Of a stretch of DNA of 64,000 bases, positions 12,599 to 44,419 are shown in pieces. The notes beneath the pieces were generated by a model. The model ran no database searches, was not told where the DNA came from, and saw only the letters and a list, made by a program, of their open reading frames with translations. This DNA is from Sulfurimonas sp. RIFCSPLOWO2_12_36_12. GTDB taxonomy: Bacteria > Campylobacterota > Campylobacteria > Campylobacterales > Sulfurimonadaceae. The DNA lies in the NCBI RefSeq assembly GCF_001829675.1, contig NZ_MIBZ01000065.1. One strand, given 5' to 3'. Position 1 is the stretch's first letter; each line of letters opens with the position of its first letter. The position numbers and the translations under genes are program-made.

Positions 12599-12864
12599 TA
12601 CTCTGCAAATGTTGGCATCATATTAAATATATTTGTTGAATAATCTATCATAACATTTAGCATCCAAGGCATGGTTAAAATGATAACAATAACAACCCCG
12701 ATGATTTTAGGAATAAAGCTCAGTGTCATCTCGTTAATTTGCGTAGTAGCTTGAAAGATACTGACTGCCAAACCTATAAACATACCGGTTAAAAGCCCGG
12801 GAAGCGCCAGCATAAGAGCTATTTTAAATGTTTCAATTCCTAGGGCTATTAGTTTTGCTTCCAT
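12598..12864 (-). CDS. fliQ: flagellar export apparatus protein FliQ
   Basis: 88 aa, two TM, with 'SIFQATTQI.E.TLSF.PK'. Confidence 0.92.
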   Translation of the reverse strand: MEAKLIALGIETFKIALMLALPGLLTGMFIGLAVSIFQATTQINEMTLSFIPKIIGVVIVIILTMPWMLNVMIDYSTNIFNMMPTFAE

Positions 12865-23513: not shown

Positions 23514-24133
23514 TAAAAGCGTCTAATATTTCACATTTTTACGGGGCAGAGCAGGTGTTATACAACCTCTCATTTGAGATTAAAGAGGGTGGATTTGTTT
23601 TTTTAAGCGGAGAGAGCGGAAGCGGTAAATCAACACTTCTCTCAATTCTCTCAACGCTCTTAAAACCCTCAAGCGGAGAGCTTTTGATAGATGAGGTGTC
23701 AATTGATAAAATTAAAAATATAGACAGTTTTCGCCAAAACAGGATAGGTTTTGTTTTTCAGTTTCACTATCTCATAAACTATCTAAGTGTTTATGAAAAC
23801 ATAGCTCTGGCAGCACTGGAAGAGAAAAAACAGAACATAAACAAAATACTCGAAGAGCTTGGAATTTTGGAATTCTCATCTCGTTACCCAAATGAGATTT
23901 CAGGCGGTCAAAGACAGCGTGTTGCCGTAGCCAGAGCACTTGTAAACGAGCCAAAAATCATCTTTGCGGATGAGCCGACCGGCAGTTTGGATTCTAAAAA
24001 CAGCACAATAGTGTATGAACTGCTGCGTGAGGCGGTAAAAAATGGAACAACCGTCGTGGTCGCTTCTCATGATATGCAGATAGAAAGTTATGCAACACAA
24101 ATTATAAGGCTTAAAGATGGACAAATTTTATAA
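23510..24133 (+). CDS. ABC transporter ATP-binding protein
   Basis: Walker A 'GESGSGKST', signature 'ISGGQRQRVAVARAL' and Walker B 'IIFADEPT'. I prefer the ATG at 23510 (ATGA overlap with the permease stop) over the track start at 23459. Confidence 0.9.
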   Translation: MIKASNISHFYGAEQVLYNLSFEIKEGGFVFLSGESGSGKSTLLSILSTLLKPSSGELLIDEVSIDKIKNIDSFRQNRIGFVFQFHYLINYLSVYENIALAALEEKKQNINKILEELGILEFSSRYPNEISGGQRQRVAVARALVNEPKIIFADEPTGSLDSKNSTIVYELLREAVKNGTTVVVASHDMQIESYATQIIRLKDGQIL

Positions 24134-25658
24134 ATTAATAGAGCAGGTTATGCCTATTTGGGCTTTTATATTTCTTGGCTCTATTTTGGCTGGTGCAATT
24201 TATGGGGCACAGATGTTGGGATTTTCCTCTTTGGACAACACGCTTCTAAATGCTCCGACTGCTAGGTCGCTCCACATAACGCTAATGCTTTACGGACCGA
24301 TTATGCTTGCTTTGTCTCTGCTTCCGTTTGCCCTTTTTGCAAAGGATAAATTAGATTTAAGCGAGGCAGTAGAGCCGTTAAAGAACTACTTTTTGTTATG
24401 GCATCTGTTTCTTTTTATGGCTGTTGTCTCTATCTCTTTGGGAGCCCAGAGAGGTTTGCCTTTTTATGATTTTGCATATGAACTAAACTTTATACTTGCA
24501 GCTTCGGGCATATTTTATATTATTGCAATTTTTAAGAGTATTAAGCATTATGAAATCACACCGCTTTGGGTAAAGGTTTCAAAAGTACTTCTTTTTGTAG
24601 CACCTTTGGCTCTTTTGGTTTTGATGAATCCGACTTACGGGCAGGTTGAAAAGACACTTATCGGACCTCATGGAGACAATACTCTTGGGATGAGTTTTAC
24701 GCTGATTCCTCTCTTTTATCTTATGATAAAACTGCACACAAAAGAGAATTTTATTCCAAAGTGGCATATCTTTTGGATTCTTCCGTTAGCGGGATATGCT
24801 CTCTCCGTCGCAACACGCATATTTATAGGGGAGCTTTCATACAATGAAGAGTGGGTTTATCAATGGCTGACTTTTGCTTATGCTCCGCTTCTGATTAAGT
24901 GGTACAAAGATGCAAAAATAACATACAGACAAAATCCCTATCTTCTCATCTCAATCTGGGCATTTTTGTTTGTAATGATTCAAGGAAATATACTTTTTAT
25001 CCCTGAAATCCGTTGGCCATTCCATAGAAATGATTTGATTGTCGCTCATGCGCATGTCGCTATCGGGCTTGGTATATTTTTTATGTCGCTAAGTATTTTA
25101 AAATATTTTTATAAACTTCCGGAAAAATTTATACATTTTTGGCTTTTAGTAATCGGACTTATTTTTGTTTCTCTCTCTCTTGCCGGTTTTGATGAAGCCG
25201 CTGTTTTTGCAGTCGATGTAATTTTTATGTGGCAGATTCGTCTTATCGCTGGGATAGTTGCTGTTATTGGTTTGACCTACTACATTGTAAAAAAGATGAA
25301 AATTGCCAGATTGTCTAGGCTTCAGTTCTACCATCTAAACGGTTTTTTATCTGATGGCTTGGGTGCGTTGATACTCTTCTTGTCAGCGCCGCTGCTGTTT
25401 GAGTTTTTAGGACTCTCCTTTAGCCCGTACTACTATCTGGTATTTGGGTTTATGGGATTTGTAGGTATTTTACATCTGATAGGAGTAACAAAAGAGGCGC
25501 ACTTTTTGGCATATTTGACATCAATCGCACGCCTCATTACGGGAACAGTTTTCTTTTCTCTCTTTTATTTGGGAACAATAGACTCTCTAGGCTTGCTTGT
25601 AGGGTTTTATGACATCTCGTATGCTCTCTTGTATCTTATTTTTAGAAGCCGTCTATGA
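24117..25658 (+). CDS. polytopic membrane protein (about 14 TM) with heme-copper-oxidase subunit I-like histidine motifs; function unknown
   Basis: 513 aa. 'ARSLHITLMLYGP' and 'IVAHAHVAIGLGIFF' resemble the helix II His and helix X HxH of the NorB encoded in this same window. Confidence 0.6.
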   Translation: MDKFYKLIEQVMPIWAFIFLGSILAGAIYGAQMLGFSSLDNTLLNAPTARSLHITLMLYGPIMLALSLLPFALFAKDKLDLSEAVEPLKNYFLLWHLFLFMAVVSISLGAQRGLPFYDFAYELNFILAASGIFYIIAIFKSIKHYEITPLWVKVSKVLLFVAPLALLVLMNPTYGQVEKTLIGPHGDNTLGMSFTLIPLFYLMIKLHTKENFIPKWHIFWILPLAGYALSVATRIFIGELSYNEEWVYQWLTFAYAPLLIKWYKDAKITYRQNPYLLISIWAFLFVMIQGNILFIPEIRWPFHRNDLIVAHAHVAIGLGIFFMSLSILKYFYKLPEKFIHFWLLVIGLIFVSLSLAGFDEAAVFAVDVIFMWQIRLIAGIVAVIGLTYYIVKKMKIARLSRLQFYHLNGFLSDGLGALILFLSAPLLFEFLGLSFSPYYYLVFGFMGFVGILHLIGVTKEAHFLAYLTSIARLITGTVFFSLFYLGTIDSLGLLVGFYDISYALLYLIFRSRL

Positions 25659-26563
25659 CACACTCTTTAGCACTGGTTTTACTTCTTGGATTTGAGTTAA
25701 GCTACTATCTTTTAATAGTTCAAACAGGAATAGCCGGACACTACAATTCTGATTTGATAACACTTTTTCCAATGTTTGCGGGCGGTGTTTTGGGAACTTT
25801 TTTGGGTGGAAGATCTTGGGGTGCGATAAATAATCCAATTCATAAAATAATGATTGCCTTGGCTCTACAGTTAGGGCTATCGTTTCTTTATCCAAATTAC
25901 AATGTTTTTACTCTGCTGCTCTTGGGTATTGCGGTCGGTGTTATGGCTCCTTTGGGAATATATCTTTTTAAAGCAAAACAGCAAAAAGAGCTTCTGCTTG
26001 CACTTGCAATAGCCTATACGACAGGTACATTCTTTTTTACATCCGTAGTGGATGATAGATTGTGGATGGCAGTTCTTTTTACTTCAATTACGCTTCTTAG
26101 TGTTTTTATACTTAAAGATTATAGAGTTGAAACGGATGCCAAGGTAGTCTCACACTCGTTTTTATCATATACCCCGTTAATGTTATGGATACTTCTGGAT
26201 TCAAATCTTTTTGAAACACTCGCTCGTCATGCGAGTTTGGATATCTGGTCAAAATATACATTTATTATAATTACATTTCATCTGCTTGGGCTGATTGCGT
26301 CCTACTTTACGCGTACATCAAAGATAAAACAGCATATCTTTATAGCATTTCTCTTCATAGGAAGCTATACATTCTCTTATTTTGAGTATCCAATTGCTTT
26401 GGCTATGATATACCCTTTTGTAATCTCATACTACAATGTTGTCGTCTTTACGACACTGAGCCAAGAGATGAGTGTATCAAAGCTTTCATTTATGATGATT
26501 TTTGTCGGTTGGATAGCTTCAGGGCTTGGTTTAGCAATTGCACTTTCAAAACTTCTACATTAA
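25655..26563 (+). CDS. polytopic membrane protein, unknown function
   Basis: 302 aa, roughly 8-10 hydrophobic segments. ATGA-type 4-nt overlap with the upstream gene. Confidence 0.6.
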   Translation: MTHSLALVLLLGFELSYYLLIVQTGIAGHYNSDLITLFPMFAGGVLGTFLGGRSWGAINNPIHKIMIALALQLGLSFLYPNYNVFTLLLLGIAVGVMAPLGIYLFKAKQQKELLLALAIAYTTGTFFFTSVVDDRLWMAVLFTSITLLSVFILKDYRVETDAKVVSHSFLSYTPLMLWILLDSNLFETLARHASLDIWSKYTFIIITFHLLGLIASYFTRTSKIKQHIFIAFLFIGSYTFSYFEYPIALAMIYPFVISYYNVVVFTTLSQEMSVSKLSFMMIFVGWIASGLGLAIALSKLLH

Positions 26564-28357: not shown

Positions 28358-28515
28358 AAAATCCCTCGCATAATATTATTTGATAAGAAATATTACTACA
28401 GATGATGTTAAAATATCGTTAAATATCTTTATAATCTAGAATTTTATAACATCTTAATTTGTATCAATATTTCTTTACTAGGTTAATGTATAATAATATT
28501 ACTAATTATGTAAGG

Positions 28516-29223
28516 ATGATGATGTTTAAATTAATAATAGTCGGGTTTTTAATGCTGCTTAACTTGGAGGCTAGCACTGATGAGGCGCTTAAAGCTTTTA
28601 AGAATAAAGATTATGCAACAGCTTTTAGGTTATATGAAAAAAGCGCAATAGAGGGTGATGCAAAGGCTCAAAGCGCACTTAGTTATCTATTTTCAAATGG
28701 ATTAGGTACTAAACAAGACTCAACAAAGGCGATGTTTTGGCTTGAAAAAGCGGCAAAAGGCGCCAATTCCACGGCTCAATATGATTTGGGTATGATGTAT
28801 TTGAGCGGATACAAGGTAGAAAAAGACAGTAAAAAGGCTTTTGAGCTTCTAAGCAAATCAGCTGAACAAAATAATCCCAATGCCCAGTATAATCTCTCTC
28901 TTATGTACTACAACGGTGATACGGTAGATTTAAATGTAACAAAAGCTGCCCAGTTGCTAGAGAGTGCGGCAAATCAGGGTCATAAAGTTGCCGAACAGAA
29001 TATAGGCCGCGTATATATGCAGCTTTTAAAGTTTGAAGAAGCATCTAAGTGGCTTGAAAAAAATGCCGCAAATGGAGATGATAGCGCTTACTATTTTTTA
29101 GCAGAGGTTTATTGTCAGCTAGAAGAGTTTAAAAAAGCAAAAGAGTGGGCGCAAAAAGCTATTGATACTGGAAACAAAGAGGCTAAGCTGCTTTATGAAA
29201 AGCATGAGCTGCAGAAATATTGA
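28516..29223 (+). CDS. Sel1-repeat (SLR/TPR-like) secreted protein
   Basis: Repeats of 'A...Y..SA..G...AQ..LG.MY..G.GV..D..KA' with signal peptide 'MMMFKLIIVGFLMLLNLEA'. Start is probably one of the ATGs at 28516-28524 rather than the TTG at 28459. Confidence 0.8.
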   Translation: MMMFKLIIVGFLMLLNLEASTDEALKAFKNKDYATAFRLYEKSAIEGDAKAQSALSYLFSNGLGTKQDSTKAMFWLEKAAKGANSTAQYDLGMMYLSGYKVEKDSKKAFELLSKSAEQNNPNAQYNLSLMYYNGDTVDLNVTKAAQLLESAANQGHKVAEQNIGRVYMQLLKFEEASKWLEKNAANGDDSAYYFLAEVYCQLEEFKKAKEWAQKAIDTGNKEAKLLYEKHELQKY

Positions 29224-29226
29224 TAA

Positions 29227-29916
29227 TTAAACAGGAACTATTTTATATCCGGAGCCGTAGATATTGTAAATTATATCATTTGGTAACTTCACGCGTATTC
29301 GTTTCATAAGAGATGTTATGGCGTGAATTGAAAACTCTTTTTCATCTTTACCCTCATGAAGATAATCAAAAATCTCTTTTGCTCCAAAGCAGTGATTTGG
29401 CTCGGAAAACAGCAATTTAAGCAGTAGATTTTCCATTTTTCTTAATTTAATCTCTTTTGAATTTCCCCAAAGAGTATTTGTATCATTATCCCAGTAGATG
29501 GTATCAGTTACATAAGTACGGTTTGTTGTTTTTCTTATAAGCTCTACGGTTTCAAGCAAAACATTTTTTAGCGTATCATTTTTTATCGGTTTTATCAGAT
29601 AACTCTCAAGATGCAGTTTGATTGCTTGAAGAAGTTTTTCCTGTTCAGAGTGAGCGCTCATAACTATTATTTTTGTATCTTTATCATGCTCTCTTATTTT
29701 AGCAATCATATCTAAGCCGTCAAGATTTGGCATACTAATATCTGTTAAAATAATATTTGGTCTCTTTTGTTGATAGATATCATATGCTTCATTTCCGCAT
29801 GCCGCAGAGTAGACTCTATTAAAAAAGAGTTGTAAATATTCGCATAGCATTTCGCGCAGTTCCGCTTCATCTTCAGCCAGTAAAATCGATATATCTCTAA
29901 TTTTTTCAGTTTTCAT
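29227..29916 (-). CDS. response regulator with OmpR-like winged-helix output
   Basis: 229 aa. Receiver domain 'ILLAEDE', 'ILTDISMPNLDG', 'SAHSE' and 'YL.KP'. C-terminal 'L.KRIRVKL......I.NIYGSGYKI'. Confidence 0.85.
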   Translation of the reverse strand: MKTEKIRDISILLAEDEAELREMLCEYLQLFFNRVYSAACGNEAYDIYQQKRPNIILTDISMPNLDGLDMIAKIREHDKDTKIIVMSAHSEQEKLLQAIKLHLESYLIKPIKNDTLKNVLLETVELIRKTTNRTYVTDTIYWDNDTNTLWGNSKEIKLRKMENLLLKLLFSEPNHCFGAKEIFDYLHEGKDEKEFSIHAITSLMKRIRVKLPNDIIYNIYGSGYKIVPV

Positions 29917-31432
29917 TTTTTATCTTTATGATGAATTCGGCTCCAAGCTTTACATTATTACTATTGTAGATGTTTTTTGCGCTTAAACTCCCATTCATAT
30001 TCTCCTCTATAATCATTTTTGCTATATGTAAACCAAGACCGGTTCCCATTGATTTGTGTTTTGTCGTGAAGTATGGGTCAAATATTTTGCTTAAATTCTC
30101 GTCATTTATTCCTCCACAATTATCCGCTATTGTAAGAGTTGTGTATTCGTCATTTCTATATAGAGCAATTGTAATATTTGCATCTGCCAGATTTTTGGTT
30201 GTTATTAAATCATCTATATTAGATAAAATTGAAACAAGTACCTGAATAAACTCATTTATTAATCCATAAATCTTATATTCGCTATTAAGTAGAAGATTTA
30301 TCTTAACGCCTCTGTTATTTTGTTCCAAATTGACAATATCTAGTGCTTTTTCTACGGCTGTATTGATGCTAAACCAAGATTTTTGCTTGTCAGGACTGTA
30401 GTAGTTCATAAAGTCTTCTATTGTTTCAGACATATATGTTACTCGTTTTTCCATTTTTTCAAGTTTATCGTCAATTTCATCTTTGCTCAACACATCTGCT
30501 CTATTTTTTTCTTTGAGTATTGCCAGCGAAGTGTTGATAATTGCCAGAGGTTGACGCCATTGATGTGCAATATTTCCAATCATCTCGCCAATCTCTGCTC
30601 TTTTTGATTGTTCAAAGAGCAATAAATTTCGCTCTTTTATGGTGTGTTCTTTCCTTTGTAACTCGTCTATGGTGTCTATAAGTTCACGATTGTACTTCTC
30701 TTCTATATACAATCCGCAATCAAGATTTTTCATGTCTTTAATCAGTTCGCTGATATATTTTTTCTCTATTATAGAACCATGCTGAGGAGCTATTAAACTT
30801 ATATCAAGCTTTTCGATTTTACCAAGAGCATAATTGAAAATATCTTTGCTTGGCATATACTCCTGATGAAACTGTTTTGCTTTGTCAAAGTATGTCTCAT
30901 CTGCATAAAAATCCCAAGATTCGTCAATCCCTCCAAAAATATCACCTGAAAAAAGAGTTTTTGAGCTAGATTCATAACTTACAAATGCTCCGGGAGAGTG
31001 GCAGTATGGAGTAGTCAAAAAATCAAGTTTAAACCCACTAGCTGTTACTAATTTATTGTCATGTTTATCTATCTCATAGTAGCTTGAAGTTACCAAATAG
31101 TGCTTGATTAAAACCGACATTCTGGAGTGGGTTACAATTTGGAGGTCATCTCTGTTTATCAGTTTTTCTATCTCTGGTACTGCTGCTGCTAAATCAGGGT
31201 CTTGGTGATGCAGTATGATGTATTTTATAGATTTGATATCAATAATAGTTTTTACTTTTCTAACAGTTTCGCTAAACTCAATCATAGAGCCGGGGTCTAT
31301 GAGAATCGACTCGTCACCATTTTTTATCAAGTACGGGTGGCACTGAAATGGGTCATTTTTTAAGTGCATGCCAACCCAATAGATGTTTGGCGCTATTAGC
31401 ACTGCTTCCGAGGTATTAAGCTCTTTAGGCAT
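29906..31432 (-). CDS. soluble sensor histidine kinase with an N-terminal flavodiiron/ODP-like metallo-beta-lactamase domain
   Basis: N-half: 'IYWVG', 'ILHHQDPD', 'PYCHSPG', 'LFSGDIFG' and 'IAPQHG'. C-half: H-box 'IAHQWRQPL', 'DNCGGI' and 'GTGLGLHIAKMI'. No TM segment. Start is ATG 31432 (no overlap) or ATG 31471 (47-nt overlap with nirE). Confidence 0.8.
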   Translation of the reverse strand: MPKELNTSEAVLIAPNIYWVGMHLKNDPFQCHPYLIKNGDESILIDPGSMIEFSETVRKVKTIIDIKSIKYIILHHQDPDLAAAVPEIEKLINRDDLQIVTHSRMSVLIKHYLVTSSYYEIDKHDNKLVTASGFKLDFLTTPYCHSPGAFVSYESSSKTLFSGDIFGGIDESWDFYADETYFDKAKQFHQEYMPSKDIFNYALGKIEKLDISLIAPQHGSIIEKKYISELIKDMKNLDCGLYIEEKYNRELIDTIDELQRKEHTIKERNLLLFEQSKRAEIGEMIGNIAHQWRQPLAIINTSLAILKEKNRADVLSKDEIDDKLEKMEKRVTYMSETIEDFMNYYSPDKQKSWFSINTAVEKALDIVNLEQNNRGVKINLLLNSEYKIYGLINEFIQVLVSILSNIDDLITTKNLADANITIALYRNDEYTTLTIADNCGGINDENLSKIFDPYFTTKHKSMGTGLGLHIAKMIIEENMNGSLSAKNIYNSNNVKLGAEFIIKIKNEN

Positions 31433-32165
31433 TTTCCTCAAACCACTGTAACTGTTCTCTAAGTTCGACAACTTTTCCTACAACTATAAGAGCAGGAGTC
31501 GGAACATCTTTAGTTTTTTGAACAATATTTTCCAATGTTCCAACAACCACGCTCTGCTCTTTAGTTGTTCCTTTGGAGATTACCGCACATGGGTAATCTT
31601 TTGCCTTGCCAATCTCCATAAGTTTTTTACTTATTTTTGGAAGATTGTGCAATCCCATCAAAAATACGATTGTATCATCGGTTTTAAATGTATCCCATGG
31701 AATCTGAGACTCTTTTTTATGAGGAGATTCATGCCCCGTTACTACTCTAAAGCTAACGGCAACACCGCGGTGGGTTACAGGTATGCCCGCATATGCCGGA
31801 GCACTGATGGCCGATGTAATACCGGGAATAATTTCAAATTTAATGCCTCTTTCATAAAGATACTGAGCCTCTTCGCCGCCGCGTCCAAAAACAAAAGGGT
31901 CACCGCCTTTTAGACGAACTACATTGTCATATTTTAAAGCATTTTGATATATAACCTCATTAATGTCATCTTGAGGGACAATATGGCGTCCATCCTCTTT
32001 GCCGACATAGACAAACTCACACCCATTTTTGGCTTCACTTAAAATATCTGGGTTGGCTAAACGGTCGTAAATAATTACATCCGCTTCTTTAATTACACGA
32101 AGCGCTTTTAGAGTTAATAACTCTATATCCCCGGGGCCTGCACCCGTTAAATAAACTTTACCCAT
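31425..32165 (-). CDS. cobA: uroporphyrinogen-III C-methyltransferase (SUMT; NirE role in heme d1 synthesis)
   Basis: 246 aa with 'VYLTGAGPGD.ELLT.KA', 'DVIIYDRL' and 'RLKGGDPFVFGRGGEE'. Confidence 0.9.
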   Translation of the reverse strand: MGKVYLTGAGPGDIELLTLKALRVIKEADVIIYDRLANPDILSEAKNGCEFVYVGKEDGRHIVPQDDINEVIYQNALKYDNVVRLKGGDPFVFGRGGEEAQYLYERGIKFEIIPGITSAISAPAYAGIPVTHRGVAVSFRVVTGHESPHKKESQIPWDTFKTDDTIVFLMGLHNLPKISKKLMEIGKAKDYPCAVISKGTTKEQSVVVGTLENIVQKTKDVPTPALIVVGKVVELREQLQWFEENA

Positions 32166-33301
32166 TATTTAGCCTCTTCGTAAACAAATATACCGGACGG
32201 TTTTTTAATATTGAACATCTCACGAGCTAAATACCACTCTTTTGTGTTTATAACGGCAACTTTGTTTGTGTCATTAACTGACACATAAAGGTTTGGTCTA
32301 AGATTTGACCATCTTGCATGAAGAACTTTTCCGTCAAATTCAAATCTCTTGACGACCTCTAGAGTTTGTGTATCTATGATTTGAACAACCGGAAACTTAT
32401 CACCGCTAAAAGTTACAGCCATATATTTTTGGTCAGGACTGAGTGCCGTAAAAACAGGCAAGCCTTCAACTTCTATATTTTTCACAAATTTAAAATCTGA
32501 AGTGTAAACTAAAACTTTGTTGTTTCCAACCGCAGGTATAAAGACATTGCCGTCACTGATGCTCCAAAAGCCAAAGTGAGGAACTTTCAGCACAGGTTTT
32601 CTATCTTCAAGCAAAATTTTAATTTTTGAGTATGTCATCGTATCTAGGTCAACTACGCCAAAAAAATCACTTTTGAAAAATCCAGTAATGAAATTGTTGT
32701 TTTTTATCATCGCGTCAAAAGGCATCACCCCGACATCTTCAAACTCTTTGTATATTTCAAAATTCGGAAGACCTTTGCCCTCATTTTTATCTTTTAGTAC
32801 AGTGATTTTATCATTATCCATTTGAGAAAAAATAAGATAATCTTTATACTTTTTAATACCTACATTTTTAGAGTTTGTTTCAAAAGATTTGATTGGGTTT
32901 AGGTTTCTGTCCAGTATATCAACGCTCTTTTTGGCATAATTTGCAACGGCTATATAATTTTCCTCTACCGTAAAACCGATAGCACTGTCGCTTGTTTTGT
33001 ACTCTTTGATTATTTTTTCACTCTCAGGGTCAAACTTTATAATATATCCGTCGCGGGAGATAGCATAACCGTCTTTGCCATAGAACTTTACAACTCCATG
33101 ACTCATATCGCGCATACCTTCTATGTGCCCTTTCGTCATTCCTTGTTCGATAACTGCTAAAGAACTGTTCTCTCTCTCAACTACAAATATTTTTTCGTTG
33201 CCTTTTAGTTCCGCAAATATAGGATTTACACCTTTTGCATGTGCATTTATAAAAAGTGTTGCTATTAAAGAAGCACCTAGTAGTACTTTGTTTATTTTCA
33301 T
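32165..33301 (-). CDS. nirF: NirF-like heme d1 biosynthesis protein (cytochrome d1-type beta-propeller without a c-heme motif)
   Basis: Signal peptide 'MKINKVLLGASLIATLFINAHA', a propeller-like repeat pattern, no CxxCH, and a position between nirJ and nirE. The ATG at 33299-33301 shares one nt with the nirJ stop (TAATG). Confidence 0.7.
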   Translation of the reverse strand: MKINKVLLGASLIATLFINAHAKGVNPIFAELKGNEKIFVVERENSSLAVIEQGMTKGHIEGMRDMSHGVVKFYGKDGYAISRDGYIIKFDPESEKIIKEYKTSDSAIGFTVEENYIAVANYAKKSVDILDRNLNPIKSFETNSKNVGIKKYKDYLIFSQMDNDKITVLKDKNEGKGLPNFEIYKEFEDVGVMPFDAMIKNNNFITGFFKSDFFGVVDLDTMTYSKIKILLEDRKPVLKVPHFGFWSISDGNVFIPAVGNNKVLVYTSDFKFVKNIEVEGLPVFTALSPDQKYMAVTFSGDKFPVVQIIDTQTLEVVKRFEFDGKVLHARWSNLRPNLYVSVNDTNKVAVINTKEWYLAREMFNIKKPSGIFVYEEAK

Positions 33302-34422
33302 TAATTTTTCCTTCTTTCTTGCTCGCTTAAGTAGCATGATGGATCTTCGCTCCATAAATCACCGGTTATCGCATAAGCTCTTGATCTTGAGCCGCCGTTG
33401 CAGATGTCTATCTGTTCGCACTCGGCACATATACCGCTAATACGTTTTCTTGGATGAATTCGTAATTGGTCTAGCAGCTCGCCGCTTTGCCAAATATCAC
33501 CAAAATTTTGATTTATTATATTTCCGACAGTTAGAGGAAAGAATGGGTCGGGACGCACATCTCCCTCACTGTTAATATTTAAAAGTTTGCGTCCTGCACT
33601 GTTCCCGCCCCAAGCAACCAAACGATTGCGCATTGTCTCTTTTAATTCCGGATACTTTAGAGCAAATCTATTTAAAAAAAGAATTGCATCTTGTTCCATA
33701 TTGCCCGTTACAATCTCAATATCTCTGCCTGTTTCGTAGTACTCAAATGCTTTATCAAGAATAAATTCTACAGACTCTCTTCTTTGCTCTTTTGTTAAAT
33801 CCATTTTTAAATTGTCCAGTCCGCGACCGGAGTATACAAGATGAGAGATGTAGATTTTTGAGATATTCTCTTTTTCAGCTAAATCAAAAATATACTCTAA
33901 TGAGTTTATAGTCTCTTTTGTGATTGTAAAACGAATCCCGACTTTAGCTCCGGTCTCATTTGCAAGACGAACTGCCTTGAGCGTTTCTCTAAAAGCGCCT
34001 TTTAAACCGCGGAAGTGGTCATGTGTAGGCTCATCGCCGTCTATGCTTATTCCGACATAATTAAAAGTGTCAACAATTCTTTTTACATTACTTGTAGTAA
34101 AGTATAAACCGTTGCTAGAGAGGTATGTAATTATGCCGTTAGCTTTGCAAAAATCAGCAATCTCAAATAAATCTTTTCTTGTGAGCGGTTCCCCGCCGGA
34201 GAAGATTATAAATTTCACCCCATTGGCTTTCATTTCCAGAATAGTTTTTTTAATCTGCTCGGTCGTTAATGTGTCAACTTCATCTAGCGTAGATTTCGAG
34301 TAACAGTGCAAACAAGAAAGGTTGCAGCGATTTGTAAAATTCCATATAGCAATTGAACCATCAAGCACTCTCTCAGGTTTTCCTTCGACTACGGATGAAA
34401 TTAGATTTGATAGCCTAAACAT
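33301..34422 (-). CDS. nirJ: radical SAM heme d1 biosynthesis protein NirJ
   Basis: 373 aa with 'CNLSCLHC' (CxxxCxxC) and a C-terminal Cys cluster 'CAECEQIDICNGG' (SPASM-like). Confidence 0.85.
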   Translation of the reverse strand: MFRLSNLISSVVEGKPERVLDGSIAIWNFTNRCNLSCLHCYSKSTLDEVDTLTTEQIKKTILEMKANGVKFIIFSGGEPLTRKDLFEIADFCKANGIITYLSSNGLYFTTSNVKRIVDTFNYVGISIDGDEPTHDHFRGLKGAFRETLKAVRLANETGAKVGIRFTITKETINSLEYIFDLAEKENISKIYISHLVYSGRGLDNLKMDLTKEQRRESVEFILDKAFEYYETGRDIEIVTGNMEQDAILFLNRFALKYPELKETMRNRLVAWGGNSAGRKLLNINSEGDVRPDPFFPLTVGNIINQNFGDIWQSGELLDQLRIHPRKRISGICAECEQIDICNGGSRSRAYAITGDLWSEDPSCYLSEQERRKN

Positions 34423-34728
34423 TTATTTGCCTTTGTATGAGAGAACATATTTAGCAATATCTTCTCTCTCTTTATCGGTTAATTTTAATTTTGTCATAAC
34501 GGTTCGTTTATATCCAAAAGCTTTATACATAGACTCTGGGTCTATAATGTAAGCCTGAATCTCTTCATTCGTTCTCTTCTGCGCAATTTCGCTAAAAGGC
34601 GGACCAAATGCAACAGCTGTCTGATGGTGACATCCCCAGCAGTATGTTTCAAAAACTTTCTTCCCATCCGTATCGTTTGCCAATAAAAATGAGGTGAGTG
34701 CTAACGCTATCAATATACTTTTTTTCAT
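34423..34728 (-). CDS. monoheme c-type cytochrome (NirC/c55X- or c551-like)
   Basis: 101 aa, signal peptide, single 'CWGCH' heme motif, and a Met-containing C-half. Its stop directly abuts the nirJ start. Confidence 0.75.
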   Translation of the reverse strand: MKKSILIALALTSFLLANDTDGKKVFETYCWGCHHQTAVAFGPPFSEIAQKRTNEEIQAYIIDPESMYKAFGYKRTVMTKLKLTDKEREDIAKYVLSYKGK

Positions 34729-34898: not shown

Positions 34899-34928
34899 AA
34901 AAAGCATTCTCTCCGCAAAGGGAGAGAA
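34899..34928 (-). terminator. Rho-independent terminator after nirS
   Basis: Minus strand reads 'ttctctcc-ctttgc-ggagagaa' followed by 'tgcttttt', 13 nt past the nirS stop. Confidence 0.6.
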
Positions 34929-34940: not shown

Positions 34941-36584
34941 TTATGCACCTGGAATAGTTTGTCTGTGCTCGATTGAGTAAGTAAATGTAGGAGTTGTTAA
35001 ACCAGTAATGTATTTAACAAATTTACCTGTTTTAGATTCGTATACACCGATACGACCTGCATTCCACTCAGAAATCATAGTCCAGTAACCATGGTTAGCC
35101 GGCTCAGCGTGAAGAATTCTAGGAACAAGTGCTTCGCCCTTCTCATTTTTTACAGTTGGAACATCCCATTTGTATAGTACTTTGTGAGTTACAGGGTCTA
35201 TTACTGTACCTTCAGTTGTACCAACAGTTATGATTCTATCAACTTCAAGAGTTTGCTTGTTGATCAAGTGAACTTGATTCCAAACTTCGCTTGATCCAAG
35301 TACATTGTCTGCCCATAGGAAAGGAGTGTGCTCAGATGTACCGATAAATAGACCGCCACCGCCGATTGGAATTTGACGAATAACATCAAAGTTATCATCC
35401 CAAATTGTTACTTGACCTAAGTTCATGTTAACAGTAGCGCCAAGTTGTTGACCTAAGCCCTCATTGTACCAAGAAGAACCTTGACCTGGGTGTGGTTTAG
35501 ATGCTGGACCTGTATAGATTTTAGTAACTAAAGATTTAGTTTTAAAGTCTACAACACCAACAACGTCACTTCCTTGAGAAGCGATAAATAGGTAACGACC
35601 AATCTCTTTACCTTCATTTAAGAAACCATCATGAAGAATATCTCCAATGTTTGGAATATCTCCAACAATTGGGTAGTTTGGTTTAGAGTAATCTACGATA
35701 TAAACGTGACCACCGTCTTTAAGTGCGAATGCAATATAAGGACCGTACGGAGTATCAAAAATACCAGCTACACGAGATGAATCGATGTCACCGTTTGGTT
35801 TGATAACGCTTGAAGTCGGGTAAACTTTTAACGGCTCAAGAGTCATAGCATCAAGTAGAATAGCTCCGCCCGGTACATAGTTACCAGCCATTAGGAATTT
35901 ACCATCCGGAGATACTGCAAGACCGCGAGATTCAGAACCAACTTGAACTTCAGCAATTTTTTGTTGACCCGGTGTATTTAAGTCAAACATTGTTACTAAA
36001 CCTGAACGAGAGATTGAGTAAGCATAACGAGGTTGACGCTTGTTTGTAACTGTTACGTGAACAGCGAAACCAGCTGGGTGCTTAGATAAAATTTTACCGT
36101 TTGTACCATCAACGAATGCAACGCGCTCAGCATCTCTTTCTGTTACGAAACAGATATCTGTGTTTTTCTTAACATCAGCAGGATTTGGATATTTTGTAAA
36201 AAATGCTGCTCTGTCATTAAGAGGCTTCCAACCAGCTTTAACTGTCTCTAAAGTAAGTTGTTTAATAACTCTGCCTTTAAAGTGTTGAATATAATCAACC
36301 ATTTTATCAGCATCGTCTTTAGAGAACTTATCTTTAAATGAAGGCATAGCAGTACCTGCACGGCCATTTAAAATAACTTCAGTAAGTGCATAAGCATTTT
36401 TCTTAGCAGTAACCGCTGGACGTAAATCAGAACCAACACCACCCTCTAAGTTAGGACCGTGACAACCTTGACACTCTTTTTCGAAAACTTTCTCTACGTC
36501 CATCGTACTAGCCGCTTGAACAAGCATACCTGAACCAACAACTGCCATAGCAGCAACTGACATAACTAATTTATTTAATCTCAT
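34941..36584 (-). CDS. nirS: cytochrome cd1 nitrite reductase NirS
   Basis: Signal peptide, 'CQGCHG' heme c site, and a d1 eight-bladed propeller region. Start set to ATG 36582-36584, with AAGGAGA 7 nt upstream. The track's extra 17 codons are a translated GC hairpin. Confidence 0.95.
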   Translation of the reverse strand: MRLNKLVMSVAAMAVVGSGMLVQAASTMDVEKVFEKECQGCHGPNLEGGVGSDLRPAVTAKKNAYALTEVILNGRAGTAMPSFKDKFSKDDADKMVDYIQHFKGRVIKQLTLETVKAGWKPLNDRAAFFTKYPNPADVKKNTDICFVTERDAERVAFVDGTNGKILSKHPAGFAVHVTVTNKRQPRYAYSISRSGLVTMFDLNTPGQQKIAEVQVGSESRGLAVSPDGKFLMAGNYVPGGAILLDAMTLEPLKVYPTSSVIKPNGDIDSSRVAGIFDTPYGPYIAFALKDGGHVYIVDYSKPNYPIVGDIPNIGDILHDGFLNEGKEIGRYLFIASQGSDVVGVVDFKTKSLVTKIYTGPASKPHPGQGSSWYNEGLGQQLGATVNMNLGQVTIWDDNFDVIRQIPIGGGGLFIGTSEHTPFLWADNVLGSSEVWNQVHLINKQTLEVDRIITVGTTEGTVIDPVTHKVLYKWDVPTVKNEKGEALVPRILHAEPANHGYWTMISEWNAGRIGVYESKTGKFVKYITGLTTPTFTYSIEHRQTIPGA

Positions 36585-36612
36585 TTTATTTCTCCTTCTA
36601 AAATAGATAAAC

Positions 36613-36635
36613 GTGCAGGCCCGAAGGCCCGGCAC
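36613..36635 (-). other. GC-rich RNA hairpin with a cUUCGg tetraloop between the small ORF and nirS
   Basis: Minus strand 'gtgccgggcc-ttcg-ggcctgcac'. There is no following U-run, so it is not a canonical terminator. Confidence 0.5.
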
Positions 36636-36649
36636 AACTTAGTAACTGA

Positions 36650-36802
36650 TTAACTCTCTTGCTCTAGACGAGCTTTTTCTTGTTTGTAAATCCAAAACAT
36701 TGGAAGTACGATAACAGTATGTAAAAAAATTGTTAGAGTCAAAGGACCTTGGTTTAACCAACCAAAGAAACTTGGAACTACATCTACAAATGGTTCAAAC
36801 AT
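36650..36802 (-). CDS. unannotated 50-aa membrane protein between norB and nirS
   Basis: Own translation: MFEPFVDVVPSFFGWLNQGPLTLTIFLHTVIVLPMFWIYKQEKARLEQES. AAGGAGA lies 5 nt upstream of the ATG, and the ORF starts 11 nt after the norB stop. Confidence 0.55.
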   Translation of the reverse strand: MFEPFVDVVPSFFGWLNQGPLTLTIFLHTVIVLPMFWIYKQEKARLEQES

Positions 36803-36812
36803 AACTTTCTCC

Positions 36813-38237
36813 TTAACGTTTGTGATGAGTAGCTTTGCCGATACTCAACAAATCTGCAACTAGAACAAAGAAACCTAAGAATGTAACAACACCCATAATA
36901 AGTCTCCAATCCATACCTTGCATAAACCACATACTAGCTTGACCTTCGAAGTAACCTGACCAAGTAGCACCCATTTGTGCACGAGATACAAGAACATCTA
37001 CATATCCAGAAAGTGTTAGCGCCGCTGTCATACCAAGAACACCACCAAAAATCATACTAGTTCCCCAGATTGATTTCTTAGTTGCATTCATTACTTTAAT
37101 ACCGTTTTTACCTTGAACTGCAAGGTAGAACATACCGATAAGAAGAGTTCCATAAGCTCCAAAGAACGCTAAGTGTCCGTGTGCCGATGTAAACTGTGTA
37201 CCGTGTGTATAAAGGTTAACTTGTGGGAATGTATGGAAGAAACCCCAAACACCAGCACCTAAGAAGTTACCGATTGCATTAAGAACAAACCAAGTAAACG
37301 CAGGCTTGTTTGCAATAACAGAAACATCTTGACCTTTTGCACTCTCTTCACCTTGCATTTTTCCCCAGTCATAAAGAACGTGGATAAACATAGCAACAAG
37401 TGGTAATGGCTCTAATGCAGAGAAAAGTGCTCCAATTTCCCACCAGTATTCAGGTGTACCGATCCAGAAGTAGTGGTGACCCATACCAAGGATACCAGAA
37501 CCAAATAGCATAGCTACTTCAATCCATAACCACATTTCAACAACTTTACGGTGTGCACCAATCATAGTGATTAGACCATAAGCTGCAATTGAACCAACGA
37601 AAACTTCCCAAGTAGCTTCAACCCAAAGGTGAATAACCCACCACCACCAGAATTGATCAATAGAGATGTTGTCAGTATAACCCATACCTGCCAAGTAGAT
37701 ACCAGCAAACGCTAGCATGTCAGCCATAAGTACAGTAACGATACCTGAACGGTTACCTTTCATTCCTGTTGCATAAAGGTTATAGATAAAACCAAGAACA
37801 ACAACAACGATACCGATATCAGCCCAACGAGGTGCTTCAATATACTCACGACCTTCATGTATCAACCAAAGAGATGTTTCATCTGCCGGTCCAACTTGAA
37901 CTAGTAAGTAAACAAGAACAACAACAACGATAGCAGCAGCAAAAACCCAGAAAAGAAGTTTTCCTAAGCCAATACCTACTGTTTCGATACCAGTTTCATC
38001 CGGTAATAACCAATAAACTGAACCAATCATCGCAAATACCATCCATACAACAAGCGCATTGATGTGTATCATTCTTGCAACAGAAAAGTCCACGATTTCA
38101 AATAGGAATCCCGGTATTACATATTGTGTCGCAGCTACTAAACCAAAAAGTAGTTGTGCACCAAAAATAATCGCAGCAAAAGTAAAATACCATGTTGCTA
38201 ATTTTTTTGATTCTGTCGTTAAATAACTATTTGCCAT
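36813..38237 (-). CDS. norB: nitric oxide reductase large subunit NorB (cNOR)
   Basis: 'ARMIHINALVVW', 'WWWWVIHLWVE', 'GMGHHYFW' and 'TSAHGHLAFFGAYG'. Start moved to ATG 38235-38237, which has AAGGAG plus 6 nt and an N-terminus 'MANSYL..SKKLATWYF' typical of NorB. Confidence 0.93.
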   Translation of the reverse strand: MANSYLTTESKKLATWYFTFAAIIFGAQLLFGLVAATQYVIPGFLFEIVDFSVARMIHINALVVWMVFAMIGSVYWLLPDETGIETVGIGLGKLLFWVFAAAIVVVVLVYLLVQVGPADETSLWLIHEGREYIEAPRWADIGIVVVVLGFIYNLYATGMKGNRSGIVTVLMADMLAFAGIYLAGMGYTDNISIDQFWWWWVIHLWVEATWEVFVGSIAAYGLITMIGAHRKVVEMWLWIEVAMLFGSGILGMGHHYFWIGTPEYWWEIGALFSALEPLPLVAMFIHVLYDWGKMQGEESAKGQDVSVIANKPAFTWFVLNAIGNFLGAGVWGFFHTFPQVNLYTHGTQFTSAHGHLAFFGAYGTLLIGMFYLAVQGKNGIKVMNATKKSIWGTSMIFGGVLGMTAALTLSGYVDVLVSRAQMGATWSGYFEGQASMWFMQGMDWRLIMGVVTFLGFFVLVADLLSIGKATHHKR

Positions 38238-38880
38238 GTACTGCTCCTTGAATTTTTCCAAAGTTTCTTGGGAAACCATTTGTATCTATTGATGACATAT
38301 GTTTTAAGAAAGCAACTAAGCCTTTAGCCTCTTCAGCAGTAATACCAAGATCTGGCATCATACGAGCATGAGTAGGATATTGAGATGGGTTTTGTAAAAA
38401 CTCAGACATCGCCTCTTCTTTTGTACTTTTACCTGTCATAGCTTGCATTGAACCCTCAGGACCCCATGCCGGATCTAGCCAAGCTTTTGTTAAGTCTGGA
38501 GCATAGTATGCACCATTTCCAAGAAGTGTATGACAGTTCATACAGTTTTTAACTTGTGAACCCAATTTTCCTAAATGAAGTAATTCTGCAGCTTCTTCTT
38601 CGCTCCAGTCATCTCTTCCGAAAAACATCTCTTTTTCACCAATTACTGGAATTTCATGGCCACGTTTTTTGTCCATTTCATAAGTAATTTTATAATTAAT
38701 AACTGTAGGTCCTGGAACCCTTTTTGTTACACCATTTTGTAAATCTGCATTCGTACCCATCGTTATTTGTGGTATCGTATCAAACGTTAACCAAATAAGA
38801 AGCATTGATGCGAAACCTGTAACCCACGCCGCTGACCGTTGCCAGAAACGATTGTCACTCCATACGGATTTTTTAGCCAC
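38227..38880 (-). CDS. norC: nitric oxide reductase cytochrome c subunit NorC
   Basis: 217 aa with an N-terminal TM anchor and 'CMNCHT'. Overlaps the norB start by 11 nt. Confidence 0.85.
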   Translation of the reverse strand: MAKKSVWSDNRFWQRSAAWVTGFASMLLIWLTFDTIPQITMGTNADLQNGVTKRVPGPTVINYKITYEMDKKRGHEIPVIGEKEMFFGRDDWSEEEAAELLHLGKLGSQVKNCMNCHTLLGNGAYYAPDLTKAWLDPAWGPEGSMQAMTGKSTKEEAMSEFLQNPSQYPTHARMMPDLGITAEEAKGLVAFLKHMSSIDTNGFPRNFGKIQGAVHGK

Positions 38881-38917
38881 TGTACCCTCCTATAAATTAT
38901 GGGTCAATATATATAAG

Positions 38918-39244
38918 TTAGTGTTCATTCTCTTCGTGAACACGATCTTGCATGTAATAGACTGCATGTGGAAGTAATAATATTCCAATAGCAGCAACAA
39001 CTAAAGCCTTGGCTGTAAATTCATTTACATGCATGTAGCTTCCCATAAGATATAAACAGTAAGCTGTCAATATCCAAAAAAGGTAGCTAAAAGGCATAGC
39101 CCAATTTTTAAGCAGTTTAACTTTTACAGCTGTATATATACCAACATAGAATCCTCCAAATACTAAAACAAGAGTAGAAGATACAAATATTGTTAAGAAC
39201 TCATCAACAAGAATATCTTTTGTCATTAAGACTTCACCAACCAT
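38918..39244 (-). CDS. 3-TM membrane protein, first gene of the nor-nir transcription unit
   Basis: 108 aa with an AGGGGA RBS. Lies 37 nt upstream of norC and downstream of an FNR-type box. Confidence 0.55.
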   Translation of the reverse strand: MVGEVLMTKDILVDEFLTIFVSSTLVLVFGGFYVGIYTAVKVKLLKNWAMPFSYLFWILTAYCLYLMGSYMHVNEFTAKALVVAAIGILLLPHAVYYMQDRVHEENEH

Positions 39245-39314: not shown

Positions 39315-39328
39315 TTGATATAAATCAA
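39315..39328 (-). promoter_or_regulatory. perfect Crp/Fnr-family (DNR/NNR-type) box TTGAT-N4-ATCAA
   Basis: 'ttgatataaatcaa'. On the minus strand a TAAACT -10-like hexamer follows about 30 nt from the box centre, giving class II geometry. Confidence 0.55.
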
Positions 39329-39444
39329 TTTTTTTACTTAATTTAAAATTTAAGGTTTGTTTTATTATTTCTGTAACAATCTGAAACATATTGTACTTTT
39401 TAATATCAATTTTAGTAATACAGTATGCTTATTTTTTAGCTTGG

Positions 39445-39639
39445 CTAAATGAAGTGCAGAAGAGATGAGAGGGTAAAAGCAAATATAAGCGTTGACACTA
39501 TTGTAGCGACTCGCTTCTGCCTTTCTGTAATGTTATATTTTTCTTCAAGATACTCCCCGATTTTTATTCCGGGAAATACAGAAAATATTAACATAGGAAC
39601 ACTCATAACACAAATAATTAGAATATCTTGAGGTATCAT
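39445..39639 (-). CDS. small 2-TM hypothetical protein
   Basis: 64-aa ORF that is hydrophobic at both ends. No RBS check was possible beyond the AT-rich upstream sequence. Confidence 0.3.
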   Translation of the reverse strand: MIPQDILIICVMSVPMLIFSVFPGIKIGEYLEEKYNITERQKRVATIVSTLIFAFTLSSLLHFI

Positions 39640-41124: not shown

Positions 41125-42021
41125 ATGGATTTTTTTAAGTATATACATGCGGTTGGAACGGGCGTTAAAGGAAACAGAGATTTGACTTTTGAAGAGTCAA
41201 AAACAATGATGGAAGAGATTTTAAAGCAAGAAGTTCATAATGAACAAATAGCCGCATTTTTGCTTGGATGGAGACTTAAGCCTGAGACAACCGATGAGTT
41301 TAGAGGAGTTGTGGAAGCGAGCGATTTGTTTATCAAAAGAACGGCTGTGCCAAACTCAATTGAGCTTGGTTATCCGTTTGACGGCAAGGCAAATAACCCT
41401 TTTATATTTCCGCTTGTTGCCAAAGTGCTTGAGAATTCAGAACTGAATCTTGTCGTAGTAGGCGATGATTTGGCGCCGGCAAAAGCAGGTATAACTCTGA
41501 AAGAAGTAGCAACAAATATAGAGCTAAATAAAAATATTCACTATTTTGACAGAGCAGATTTTTTTAAAGAGATGCATTATTTAACACCGCTTCGCATGAG
41601 GCTAGGTCTTAGAACAGGTCTTAATACGATTGAGAAATTAACACGCGTAGCAAATAGTGAATTTGCTATAACTGGTGTTTTTCATAAACCGTATGTAAAA
41701 AAATATGTAGAAGTTTTTGCAGACAGATATAAAAGATTTGCACTTATTCAAGGAAACGAAGGCACTCCAGAGCTTTTTAGCAAAGGCCGTTTATGGATTG
41801 CAAACGGCAGCGATGTCGAAGAGTTTATAGTTGACCCAGCCCACTATGGTATAAATTACACAAAATCTTGGGAAAAAATTACCATAGAAGAGTCAATAGA
41901 ACAATTAAATAATCCCTCAAACGAATTTTTAAAACTGGCACGACTTAATGCGGCTGTTTTTCTTTTTGTTGCGCAAAAAGCCTCTAGCATAGACGAAGCT
42001 TACGAAAAACTAAATGGATAA
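41125..42021 (+). CDS. TrpD-like (anthranilate phosphoribosyltransferase family / TrpD2-YbiB-like) protein
   Basis: 298 aa. N-terminal helical 'LT.EES...M..IL.......QIAAFL...R.K.ET..E' is typical of the glycosyl transferase family 3 N-domain. Shorter than a bona fide TrpD. Confidence 0.55.
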   Translation: MDFFKYIHAVGTGVKGNRDLTFEESKTMMEEILKQEVHNEQIAAFLLGWRLKPETTDEFRGVVEASDLFIKRTAVPNSIELGYPFDGKANNPFIFPLVAKVLENSELNLVVVGDDLAPAKAGITLKEVATNIELNKNIHYFDRADFFKEMHYLTPLRMRLGLRTGLNTIEKLTRVANSEFAITGVFHKPYVKKYVEVFADRYKRFALIQGNEGTPELFSKGRLWIANGSDVEEFIVDPAHYGINYTKSWEKITIEESIEQLNNPSNEFLKLARLNAAVFLFVAQKASSIDEAYEKLNG

Positions 42022-43219: not shown

Positions 43220-43256
43220 TTTATAAAACTTTGTAAATCTCCAGCATTTATGCTGG

Positions 43257-43328
43257 TAGCTTTAGGGGGATGCAAGGGACAAATTTGTCCCTGCCACATA
43301 AAACGGACGCGTCCGTTTTAGTGCGTAA
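43257..43328. repeat. double-hairpin intergenic repeat, copy B
   Basis: 'tagctttagggggatgcaagggacaaatttgtccctgccacataaaacggacgcgtccgttttagtgcgtaa'. Preceded by another hairpin, 'ccagca-ttta-tgctgg', at 43241-43256. Confidence 0.8.
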
Positions 43329-43335
43329 AATAATT

Positions 43336-43713
43336 TTAAAGTCCGTAAAATCTCTTAACAAAATCTCGCTCTTTTTCTGTTTCAATGAAGATTCTGGCAA
43401 CAGTTTGATTGTTTTCGCCAAGTATAAGAACTTCATTATTTTCAATACTTAGATGCTCTTTTCCCCACTTTTTGTCTAGCTCATCTACTCTGTGAAAAAA
43501 CTCTTGAGAGCTTGGGCTCTCTTTTTCTCCATTTCGTTTATCTATGATTGTTAATCCGCCAACTTTTTTCTCAACTATATATGGACTGTAAACTTTTATA
43601 GCCGTATATATGCGATCCTCTTTTGCCTCCGGCATCGCTCGTTTCATAGAGAGCATCCCCAAAACCAAAAAGGCTGTAAAAAACCCAAATATTAAAGCTT
43701 TCTTCATATTCAT
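43336..43713 (-). CDS. membrane-anchored hypothetical protein coupled to the sirC-like gene
   Basis: 125 aa with one N-terminal TM. ATGA overlap with the upstream sirC-like stop. Confidence 0.55.
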   Translation of the reverse strand: MNMKKALIFGFFTAFLVLGMLSMKRAMPEAKEDRIYTAIKVYSPYIVEKKVGGLTIIDKRNGEKESPSSQEFFHRVDELDKKWGKEHLSIENNEVLILGENNQTVARIFIETEKERDFVKRFYGL

Positions 43714-44279: not shown

Positions 44280-44419
44280 CTGTCTCTTTTTGTCTATTTT
44301 TCTACGACATAATATCATAGTTTTTTGAAAACTCTTATTGATAGAAATCAACTTGGATTAATTGAAATTAGATTACAATCGACAAAATAAAAATAAAAAA
44401 ATGAATGGAATAATAATAG

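Follow-up and report, generated by a model that had tools for sequence, protein, structure and literature searches.

A candidate O2-responsive histidine kinase with an ODP-type di-iron domain at the end of the haem d1 genes of Sulfurimonas

What does a soluble sensor kinase perceive, and what does it control, when its gene overlaps the last of a run of haem d1 genes? The question is raised by a locus of Sulfurimonas sp. RIFCSPLOWO2_12_36_12 (assembly GCF_001829675.1), lying in a 64,000-nucleotide (nt) stretch of contig NZ_MIBZ01000065.1 that was analysed as a whole and is called the window below. Here a histidine kinase with an N-terminal ODP domain and an OmpR-type response regulator follow nirE, at the end of a denitrification cluster. 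At redox interfaces, both marine and in groundwater, species of this genus are among the major chemolithoautotrophic denitrifiers, and they pass continually through gradients of O2 and nitrate there. A review of respiratory regulation in the Campylobacterota names no regulator for their nirS/nor genes (PMC6682613). We lean, without great assurance, towards a cytoplasmic two-component system in which the ODP sensor tunes the haem d1/nirS-nor genes, with O2 as the most likely input and Fe(II) as a co-signal.

The family of the N-terminal domain (30704..31432 (-), residues 1-243) can be stated plainly. Pfam places it in ODP (PF19583) with E=8.9e-62 and 208.9 bits against a cut-off of 27.2, the match covering profile positions 1-194 of 194; the generic Lactamase_B model, that of the metallo-beta-lactamase (MBL) fold, scores only 2e-11. 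A sequence search of the PDB with residues 1-275 returns ODPs first (6qrq, 3.6e-27; 6qnm, 1.4e-21), then flavodiiron proteins (FDPs) at about 1e-10, with ordinary MBLs not significant. Using a profile built from 65 homologues, the same two ODPs score 1.7e-31 and 2e-25 and the best FDP 3.6e-15; the hits at E<=1e-5 include no hydrolytic MBL. Structural comparison gives the same order. An AlphaFold model of the domain alone, with a predicted local distance difference test score (pLDDT) of 86.7 and a predicted template-modelling (TM) score (pTM) of 0.86, finds only ODP chains at Foldseek ranks 1-10, with target-based TM-scores (TMt) of 0.77-0.84 and root-mean-square deviations of 2.6-3.0 A, the best match being 6r9n, a peroxo-diiron form. 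These are followed by FDP cores; the first hydrolytic MBL does not appear before rank 43, and the query-based TM-scores (TMq) of such enzymes (GIM-1, PqsE) are at most 0.59. The full-length AlphaFold model, of low confidence (pLDDT 67.7) and for qualitative use only, recovered both the ODP core and a kinase core of the HK853 type.

Within the MBL fold, the domain therefore falls in the ODP/flavodiiron branch and outside the hydrolytic MBLs. An earlier note on this DNA, made from the letters alone, had named profile and structure comparison as the way to tell these apart, and a grouping with hydrolytic MBLs is thereby ruled out. In particular, a glyoxalase II or RNase Z type of enzyme was rejected on the structural scores just given and on the motif H-x-D-x-D-L, which is not the H-x-H-x-D-H of such enzymes. 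A flavodiiron protein proper was also rejected, the motif being H-Q-D-P-D-L instead of H-x-E-x-D-H and no flavodoxin domain being found among the Pfam matches of the protein, just as the note had read it. Since those matches include no electron-input domain, a catalytic role as a reductase is unlikely.

Does the domain retain a metal site? The note had counted six of seven ligands by the FDP standard, with Leu at the last His of the first motif. The Leu is indeed there (L81), at the position of the second His of FDP motif 2, but Val occupies the same position in ODPs, and the site is not deficient by the standard of its own family. The positions concerned are H76, D78, D80, H145, D164, Q217 and H218, lying in HQDPD (76-80), PYCH (145), FSGD (164) and PQHG (217-218). 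All seven face identical residues in the ODPs 6qrq and 6qnm, and all but Q217 also face the ligands H, E, D, H, D, H of the FDP 1ycf. According to a survey of the MBL superfamily, the motif-2 His is replaced in the Thermotoga maritima ODP by a Gln from motif 5 (PMC7785958); its equivalent in the kinase is Q217, so that by alignment all seven ODP ligand positions are present and the set is complete. None of them varies in 59 nir-linked homologues, nor in a set of 65 sequences to which Sulfurovum and PAS-containing forms belong, and conservation is still at least 90% in the representatives of 150 distant ODP clusters.

The kinase gene itself lies at 29906..31432 (-), the start preferred by the gene caller, ATG 31432, giving the 508-residue form whose numbering is used here. 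An alternative start, TTG 31471, gives a form of 521 residues (29906..31471 (-)), which is the open reading frame (ORF) that the note had described; the range 29227-31471 given there takes in the regulator gene too. The ATG overlaps the nirE stop codon by 8 nt (ATGCCTAA) and the TTG overlaps nirE by 47 nt. The second of these had been anticipated, but the other start then suggested, 4 nt past the nirE stop, has to be given up since no start codon is found there. The nirE/kinase junction ATGNCTAA is kept in divergent related genomes. All of the sequence blocks first picked out are present in the translation (IYWVG, ILHHQDPD, PYCHSPG, LFSGDIFG, IAPQHG, IAHQWRQPL, DNCGGI and GTGLGLHIAKMI). The highest 19-residue Kyte-Doolittle mean is only 1.46, within the N-box helix of the ATPase domain, and the kinase is thus without a membrane segment, in agreement with the first impression of a soluble protein. 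In public annotation the protein goes under generic names: "ATP-binding protein", "MBL fold metallo-hydrolase" or "flavorubredoxin".

Beyond the ODP domain a helical linker (30608..30700 (-), residues about 245-275) runs from the conserved L-x-C-G end of the domain to the DHp helices; a helix is predicted at 245-265, and it is immediately behind the aligned LKCG motif that the chains of stand-alone ODPs stop. The HisKA (DHp) domain (30392..30589 (-)) carries the phospho-acceptor His290 within IAHQWRQPL and scores 31.2 bits in Pfam (cut-off 26.9). HATPase_c (29915..30253 (-); 57.5 bits, E=2.2e-15) has its N box at N393, G1 at DNCGG 437, the F box at FDPYF 451 and G2 at GTGLGL 463. By these boxes and Pfam matches the protein is a class I (HisKA) sensor histidine kinase, and the complete HisKA/HATPase core that had been proposed stands, with both families above their cut-offs and the motifs intact. 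The core matches those of HK853, KinB and ZraS and resembles FixL-type chimeras.

The stop codon of the kinase overlaps the next gene (29227..29916 (-)) by 11 nt, as had been noted. Its product of 229 residues combines a receiver (Response_reg, 90.7 bits, E=8.6e-26) and a winged-helix domain (Trans_reg_C, 32.5 bits, cut-off 26.2), which together identify it as an OmpR-type response regulator and bear out the pairing claimed earlier. The acidic pocket E15/D16, the phospho-acceptor D59 and K109 are in place, and the regulator adjoins the kinase in nearly all related loci.

On the other side of the kinase are cobA/nirE, encoding uroporphyrinogen-III C-methyltransferase (31425..32165 (-); NCBIfam TIGR01469, 309 bits), a gene for a nirF-like cytochrome-d1-domain protein (32165..33355 (-); Pfam and NCBIfam), nirJ (33301..34422 (-); TIGR04051, 378 bits) and a cytochrome c gene (34423..34728 (-); Pfam and NCBIfam). 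From the cytochrome c gene through to the regulator the junctions are tight or overlapping. Immediately upstream lies the unit orf108-norC-norB-(50-aa ORF)-nirS at 34941..39244 (-), recognised by the Pfam families Cytochrom_D1, COX1 (norB) and Cytochrom_C and colinear in 36 related loci. The upstream genes listed in the earlier note are therefore all found. On gene order and overlaps, translational coupling ties kinase and regulator to the 3' end of cytc-nirJ-nirF-nirE, with norCB-nirS directly upstream, and the six genes from cytochrome c to regulator probably form one transcription unit.

Is this arrangement peculiar to one genome? The proteins of the window were compared with 80 loci from species-representative genomes. 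The best of these is 95% identical at the protein level, and orthologues of the Sulfurimonas type range from 66 to 95% identity; Sulfurimonas gotlandica GD1 and Sulfurimonas sp. CS5 are among the isolates with an orthologue. Wherever such a locus has upstream sequence (47 of 47), nirE is directly upstream; nirS is present in 42 of the 47 and norCB in 36, the loci without them all being truncated contigs. The order orf108-norC-norB-nirS-cytc-nirJ-nirF-nirE-kinase-regulator is unchanged even in loci whose regulator is down to about 51% identity, and despite variation in the genes that follow. The nir-linked arrangement is thus fixed across the genus Sulfurimonas in all species genomes with enough flanking sequence, and the attachment to the haem d1/nirS-nor cluster that the note had seen in one genome is a physical coupling kept throughout the genus.

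Beyond the Sulfurimonas-type orthologues the picture changes. A wider survey of linkage to denitrification, as the note had envisaged, bears out its claim in Sulfurimonas but not for the Sulfurovum-type orthologues, which stand among housekeeping genes. The latter are 55-59% identical to the kinase overall and 65-70% in the ODP domain; the kinase-regulator pair is kept, and sits between ilvBH/lpxD and ppx/selU/selD. A further variant in which a PAS domain follows the ODP domain is found, with its regulator, immediately beside a block of GT3, MFS, orf125, sirohaem synthase and nirDL genes in the two loci L056 and L083. In both, nrdD comes after the pair, and in L083 nrdG comes next (anaerobic ribonucleotide reductase). 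This is a second, different arrangement that places an ODP kinase beside haem d1 and anaerobic-growth genes. The same block (GT3-like, MFS, orf125, sirohaem-synthase-like, nirDL) is present in the window at 41125-45418. Set beside L056 and L083, the window looks as if a short-chain dehydrogenase/reductase (SDR) gene, orf136, nor-nirS and nirJFE had been inserted between the GT3 gene and the kinase.

How new is the fusion? An exhaustive HMMER search with the ODP domain gave 1267 clusters (50% identity) at E<=1e-3, the best 150 of which were scanned with Pfam. These are mostly long proteins with the ODP domain N-terminal. Alongside ODP (150), the scan of the best 150 clusters found GGDEF (82), Response_reg (47), HATPase_c (11), HisKA (8), Guanylate_cyc (5), MCPsignal (4), SpoIIE (4) and EAL (2), so that kinase fusions make up around 7% of them. 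This spread of GGDEF, kinase, chemoreceptor and SpoIIE outputs shows ODP to be a general cytoplasmic sensor module. Within Campylobacterota the ODP kinases comprise the 508-residue ODP-kinase form, ODP-PAS-kinases of about 611-653 residues, a 745-residue ODP-kinase amid REC-GGDEF/EAL genes (L057, 9998-12235) and a 961-residue ODP-GAF-kinase-REC-REC hybrid (L055, 1839-4724). From elsewhere the only named ODP kinase is a Magnetococcales hybrid, in a look-up of cluster members for which taxonomy is sparse.

The belief that such a fusion was undescribed does not hold: in the TREND paper (PMC7319448), Muok et al. 2019 are said to have already listed ODPs fused to signal-transduction domains, and fusions dominate the nearest ODP clusters here. 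Our literature searches returned no characterised ODP kinase, nothing relevant on PF19583 or on a Sulfurimonas nir regulator, and no account of linkage between an ODP kinase and nir genes, of an OmpR partner or of a genus-wide coupling to haem d1/nirS-nor. The domain family and its fused forms were on record already; as far as these searches go, what is new is an output through a kinase, the pairing with an OmpR-type protein and the tight coupling across the genus.

From these domain identities, intact motifs, operon coupling and synteny we infer a ligand, a direction of signalling and targets as follows. The comparison is with the ODPs of Treponema denticola and T. maritima (6qnm, 6r9n, 6qrq, 6qwo; PF19583), with which the kinase shares family, fold and ligand set; neither they nor the kinase have a flavodoxin domain, and by analogy the role here would also be sensory and not catalytic. 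The characterised ODPs are described as stand-alone proteins of ~250 residues that sense O2 and Fe(II) and, with no covalent link, pass the signal on to CheA and to a cytoplasmic chemoreceptor that has no sensor of its own. The ODP domain studied here, in contrast, is covalently fused to a class I kinase, with a transcription factor as partner and respiratory genes as neighbours; the flanks examined showed neither a gene for a methyl-accepting chemotaxis protein (MCP) nor che genes. In the proposed mechanism the di-iron site would load Fe(II) and bind O2 as a peroxo adduct, as in the Treponema and Thermotoga proteins, with a resulting change of conformation or of subunit association in the ODP domain. 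The change would pass through the C-terminal helix that starts after L-x-C-G into the DHp bundle and would alter the balance of kinase and phosphatase activities and hence the phosphorylation state of the regulator. The phosphorylated regulator would then adjust transcription of the haem d1/nirS-nor genes, and possibly of its own operon, acting beside a Crp/Fnr-type factor at the TTGAT-N4-ATCAA boxes of nor-nirS and nirDL.

Those boxes deserve comment. Promoter- and terminator-like sites were found as consensus matches, which are no commoner than in shuffled sequence. A terminator-like hairpin lies directly after nirS (34907..34928 (-)), and the AT-rich spacer beyond it holds a conserved TAGAAT about 25 nt before the ATG of the cytochrome c gene; taken together these suggest that the unit from cytochrome c to regulator may have its own promoter besides read-through. 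Of the three perfect Fnr boxes in the window two are intergenic. One is a perfect Crp/Fnr-type palindrome, TTGATATAAATCAA, at 39315..39328 (no strand assigned), about 84 nt upstream of orf108, in a strongly conserved region where a TTGAT-N4-ATCAA box is met again, at this very distance, in many loci across the genus Sulfurimonas. The other, at 44338-44351, is in the divergent promoter between the sirohaem-synthase-like gene and nirDL. The third, at 3895, falls within an ORF without family match and is probably a chance occurrence.

TTGAT-N4-ATCAA is the classical site of the Crp/Fnr family, and the conserved boxes imply that a one-component regulator of this type also acts on nor-nirS and nirDL. 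No gene of that family was found among the suitably sized window ORFs scanned, and the cognate regulator would thus be encoded elsewhere. FNR/ANR, DNR/NnrR and, among Campylobacterota, NssR and NssA-C are the classical O2/NO switches of nir/nor genes; they are one-component proteins unrelated in sequence to the ODP pair, which would add a two-component input.

A site for the OmpR-type regulator is harder to point to. A direct repeat, TGTTTCAGA-T-TGTTACAGA, with 10-bp spacing, lies at 39370..39388 (-), about 60 nt upstream of the Fnr box; it includes TGTTTCAGATTGTTACAGA and, as the kind of sequence that OmpR-family proteins bind, is at best a weak candidate. In L083, a TTGACA-N4-TGACA repeat occurs twice (12540-12580 and 12725-12765) in the spacer that separates nrdD from the regulator gene, each followed by a T-run and then TATACT; these could be regulator-dependent promoters before nrdDG, and are as unproven as the repeat in the window. 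In Sulfurovum the promoter of the pair itself has a one-mismatch Fnr-like box (e.g. TTGATTAGAATCAT) at -47/-48 from the kinase start. It is present in five of the seven Sulfurovum-type loci with at least 122 nt upstream (L047, L048, L051, L081 and L082) against a background of 0.02 per 200 nt, which suggests that in Sulfurovum the ODP system is itself part of an Fnr-type regulon.

Several points weigh against a role for the ODP pair in tuning denitrification through O2. In the complete genomes of Sulfurovum sp. NBC37-1 and S. lithotrophicum no nir/nor genes lie within 10 kb either side of the pair, and the pair of L047, also of the Sulfurovum type, is likewise not beside such genes. Adjacency to nir genes is therefore specific to one lineage, and may go back to a single inherited event. 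The conserved Fnr-type box of nor-nirS would suffice for control by O2 or NO in the absence of the ODP system. Conservation of the candidate regulator repeat, at a fixed position, extends no further than the closer clade (about L001-L021), and finding it once in 64 kb is not significant, as 27 of 100 shuffles do as well. As for the sensor, the geometry of the putative binuclear site is drawn from alignment and global superposition only, and metal content, ligand and direction of regulation are extrapolated by analogy with two stand-alone ODPs.

NO is the main alternative to O2 as the input. The same system would then respond through a di-iron nitrosyl, as in FDP sites, and bring about induction of nor/nirS or of the haem d1 genes. 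A gene directly downstream of the NO-producing nirS and the NO-consuming norCB would be well placed for this, and denitrification clusters commonly include an NO-responsive regulator. Moreover, the nearest structural relatives after the ODPs are NO-reducing FDPs. The MBL-like di-iron domain of FDPs (FprA, ROO, flavorubredoxin NorV) is homologous to that of the kinase (E about 1e-10 to 1e-15, TMq 0.65-0.76), both being concerned with O2 and NO chemistry. The kinase differs from them in having no flavodoxin or rubredoxin and H-Q-D-P-D-L as motif 2, and is not expected to be a reductase. Its ligands are of the ODP type (H-x-D-x-D plus Q-H) and not of the FDP type (H-x-E-x-D-H), and the characterised ODPs are described as sensors of O2 and Fe(II). 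The Fnr-type boxes at nor-nirS and nirDL suggest that a Crp/Fnr factor already conveys NO or O2, and the Sulfurovum and nrdDG contexts suit O2 better. We therefore consider NO an unlikely principal signal.

Alternatively, the pair could be a general redox or O2 regulator of the Sulfurimonadaceae and Sulfurovaceae that was captured at the end of the nirJFE operon in the ancestor of Sulfurimonas and does not control denitrification. The position of the Sulfurovum orthologues between ilvBH/lpxD and ppx/selD is what would then be expected; the nir-linked loci, all from one genus, could reflect that one capture, and the nor-nirS promoter has its own Fnr-type box. Yet the overlapping stop/start junctions have persisted although the proteins have diverged by about 35% and the neighbours downstream are no longer the same, haem d1 genes and nrdDG again adjoin an ODP kinase pair in a different arrangement, and the promoter of the Sulfurovum pair bears an Fnr-like box. 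We consider a passenger at the operon end improbable. An iron sensor proper, in which Fe(II) occupancy would report cytoplasmic iron and match the iron-expensive haem d1, cytochromes and NirS/NorB to supply, has in its favour that ODP has been described as sensing both O2 and Fe(II), and the probable co-transcription with tetrapyrrole/haem d1 genes (nirE, nirJ, nirF) instead of structural reductase genes, but is at least as improbable, no iron-uptake or iron-storage gene being near the pair in the three contexts examined and Fe and O2 sensing in ODP not being exclusive, so that iron is better seen as a co-signal than as a separate model.

To return to an ODP system that tunes haem d1/nirS-nor with O2 as its likeliest input, a bolder form of it can be entertained, though only tentatively and with more doubt than belief: that, in Sulfurimonas and its sulfur-oxidising relatives among the Campylobacterota, it is primarily this pair that switches the expression of nirS/nor and haem d1 in response to O2 (or NO). 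This would add a hierarchy with the Fnr-type factor, whose boxes are seen at nor-nirS, at nirDL and at the kinase operon of Sulfurovum.

Some other features of the window may be recorded. The gap between norB and nirS is filled by the 50-aa ORF (36650-36802 (-), MFEPFVDVVPSFFGWLNQGPLTLTIFLHTVIVLPMFWIYKQEKARLEQES), which has its own AAGGAG ribosome-binding site, is highly conserved in the 36 related loci and appears to encode a small membrane protein as part of the nor-nirS operon. Upstream of norC are two small hydrophobic ORFs without family match, of 108 residues (38918-39244 (-)) and 64 residues (39445-39639 (-)); the former, orf108, encodes a membrane protein and is conserved and colinear in all related loci. 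A Sel1-repeat protein gene (28459-29223 (+)) converges on the regulator gene, their stop codons being 3 nt apart, and keeps its position in most Sulfurimonas loci though identity falls to 45-57%. Further away are two overlapping multi-pass membrane ORFs, of 513 residues (24117-25658 (+)) and 302 residues (25655-26563 (+)), with no Pfam match at E<=1e-3; the first carries a His-rich HAHVAIG motif. A Gp49-like toxin-family gene (4321-4662 (+)), an AbiEii-type nucleotidyltransferase toxin gene (54219-54932 (-)) and a cluster of four tRNAs (55657-56077 (-)) may be mobile or defence-related islets unrelated to the kinase. A search of the window with Rfam returned these four tRNAs only, far from the nir/nor cluster.

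Cytoplasmic O2 sensors in which a metal cofactor drives a fused output are familiar from FixL/FixJ (haem-PAS), AfGcHK (globin-coupled) and DcrH (hemerythrin di-iron). The ODP kinase would work likewise but differs from all of them in fold, which is the alpha-beta-beta-alpha of MBLs and not, for instance, the four-helix bundle of hemerythrin, and in its expected cofactor, a non-haem di-iron centre. If the bolder form of the proposal is true, no earlier non-haem di-iron sensor kinase of the MBL fold will have been shown to govern a respiratory pathway. The system would also extend the biology of ODP past chemotaxis. Since most close relatives of the domain are fusions that have yet to be characterised, one kinase with a clear physiological read-out could serve as a model for the whole class. 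For Sulfurimonas, an ODP sensor tied to a transcription factor at the end of the haem d1 operon offers a concrete candidate for the input of O2, NO or Fe to denitrification, and on its sequence the pair is a good candidate for O2, iron or NO sensing in sulfur-oxidising denitrifiers.

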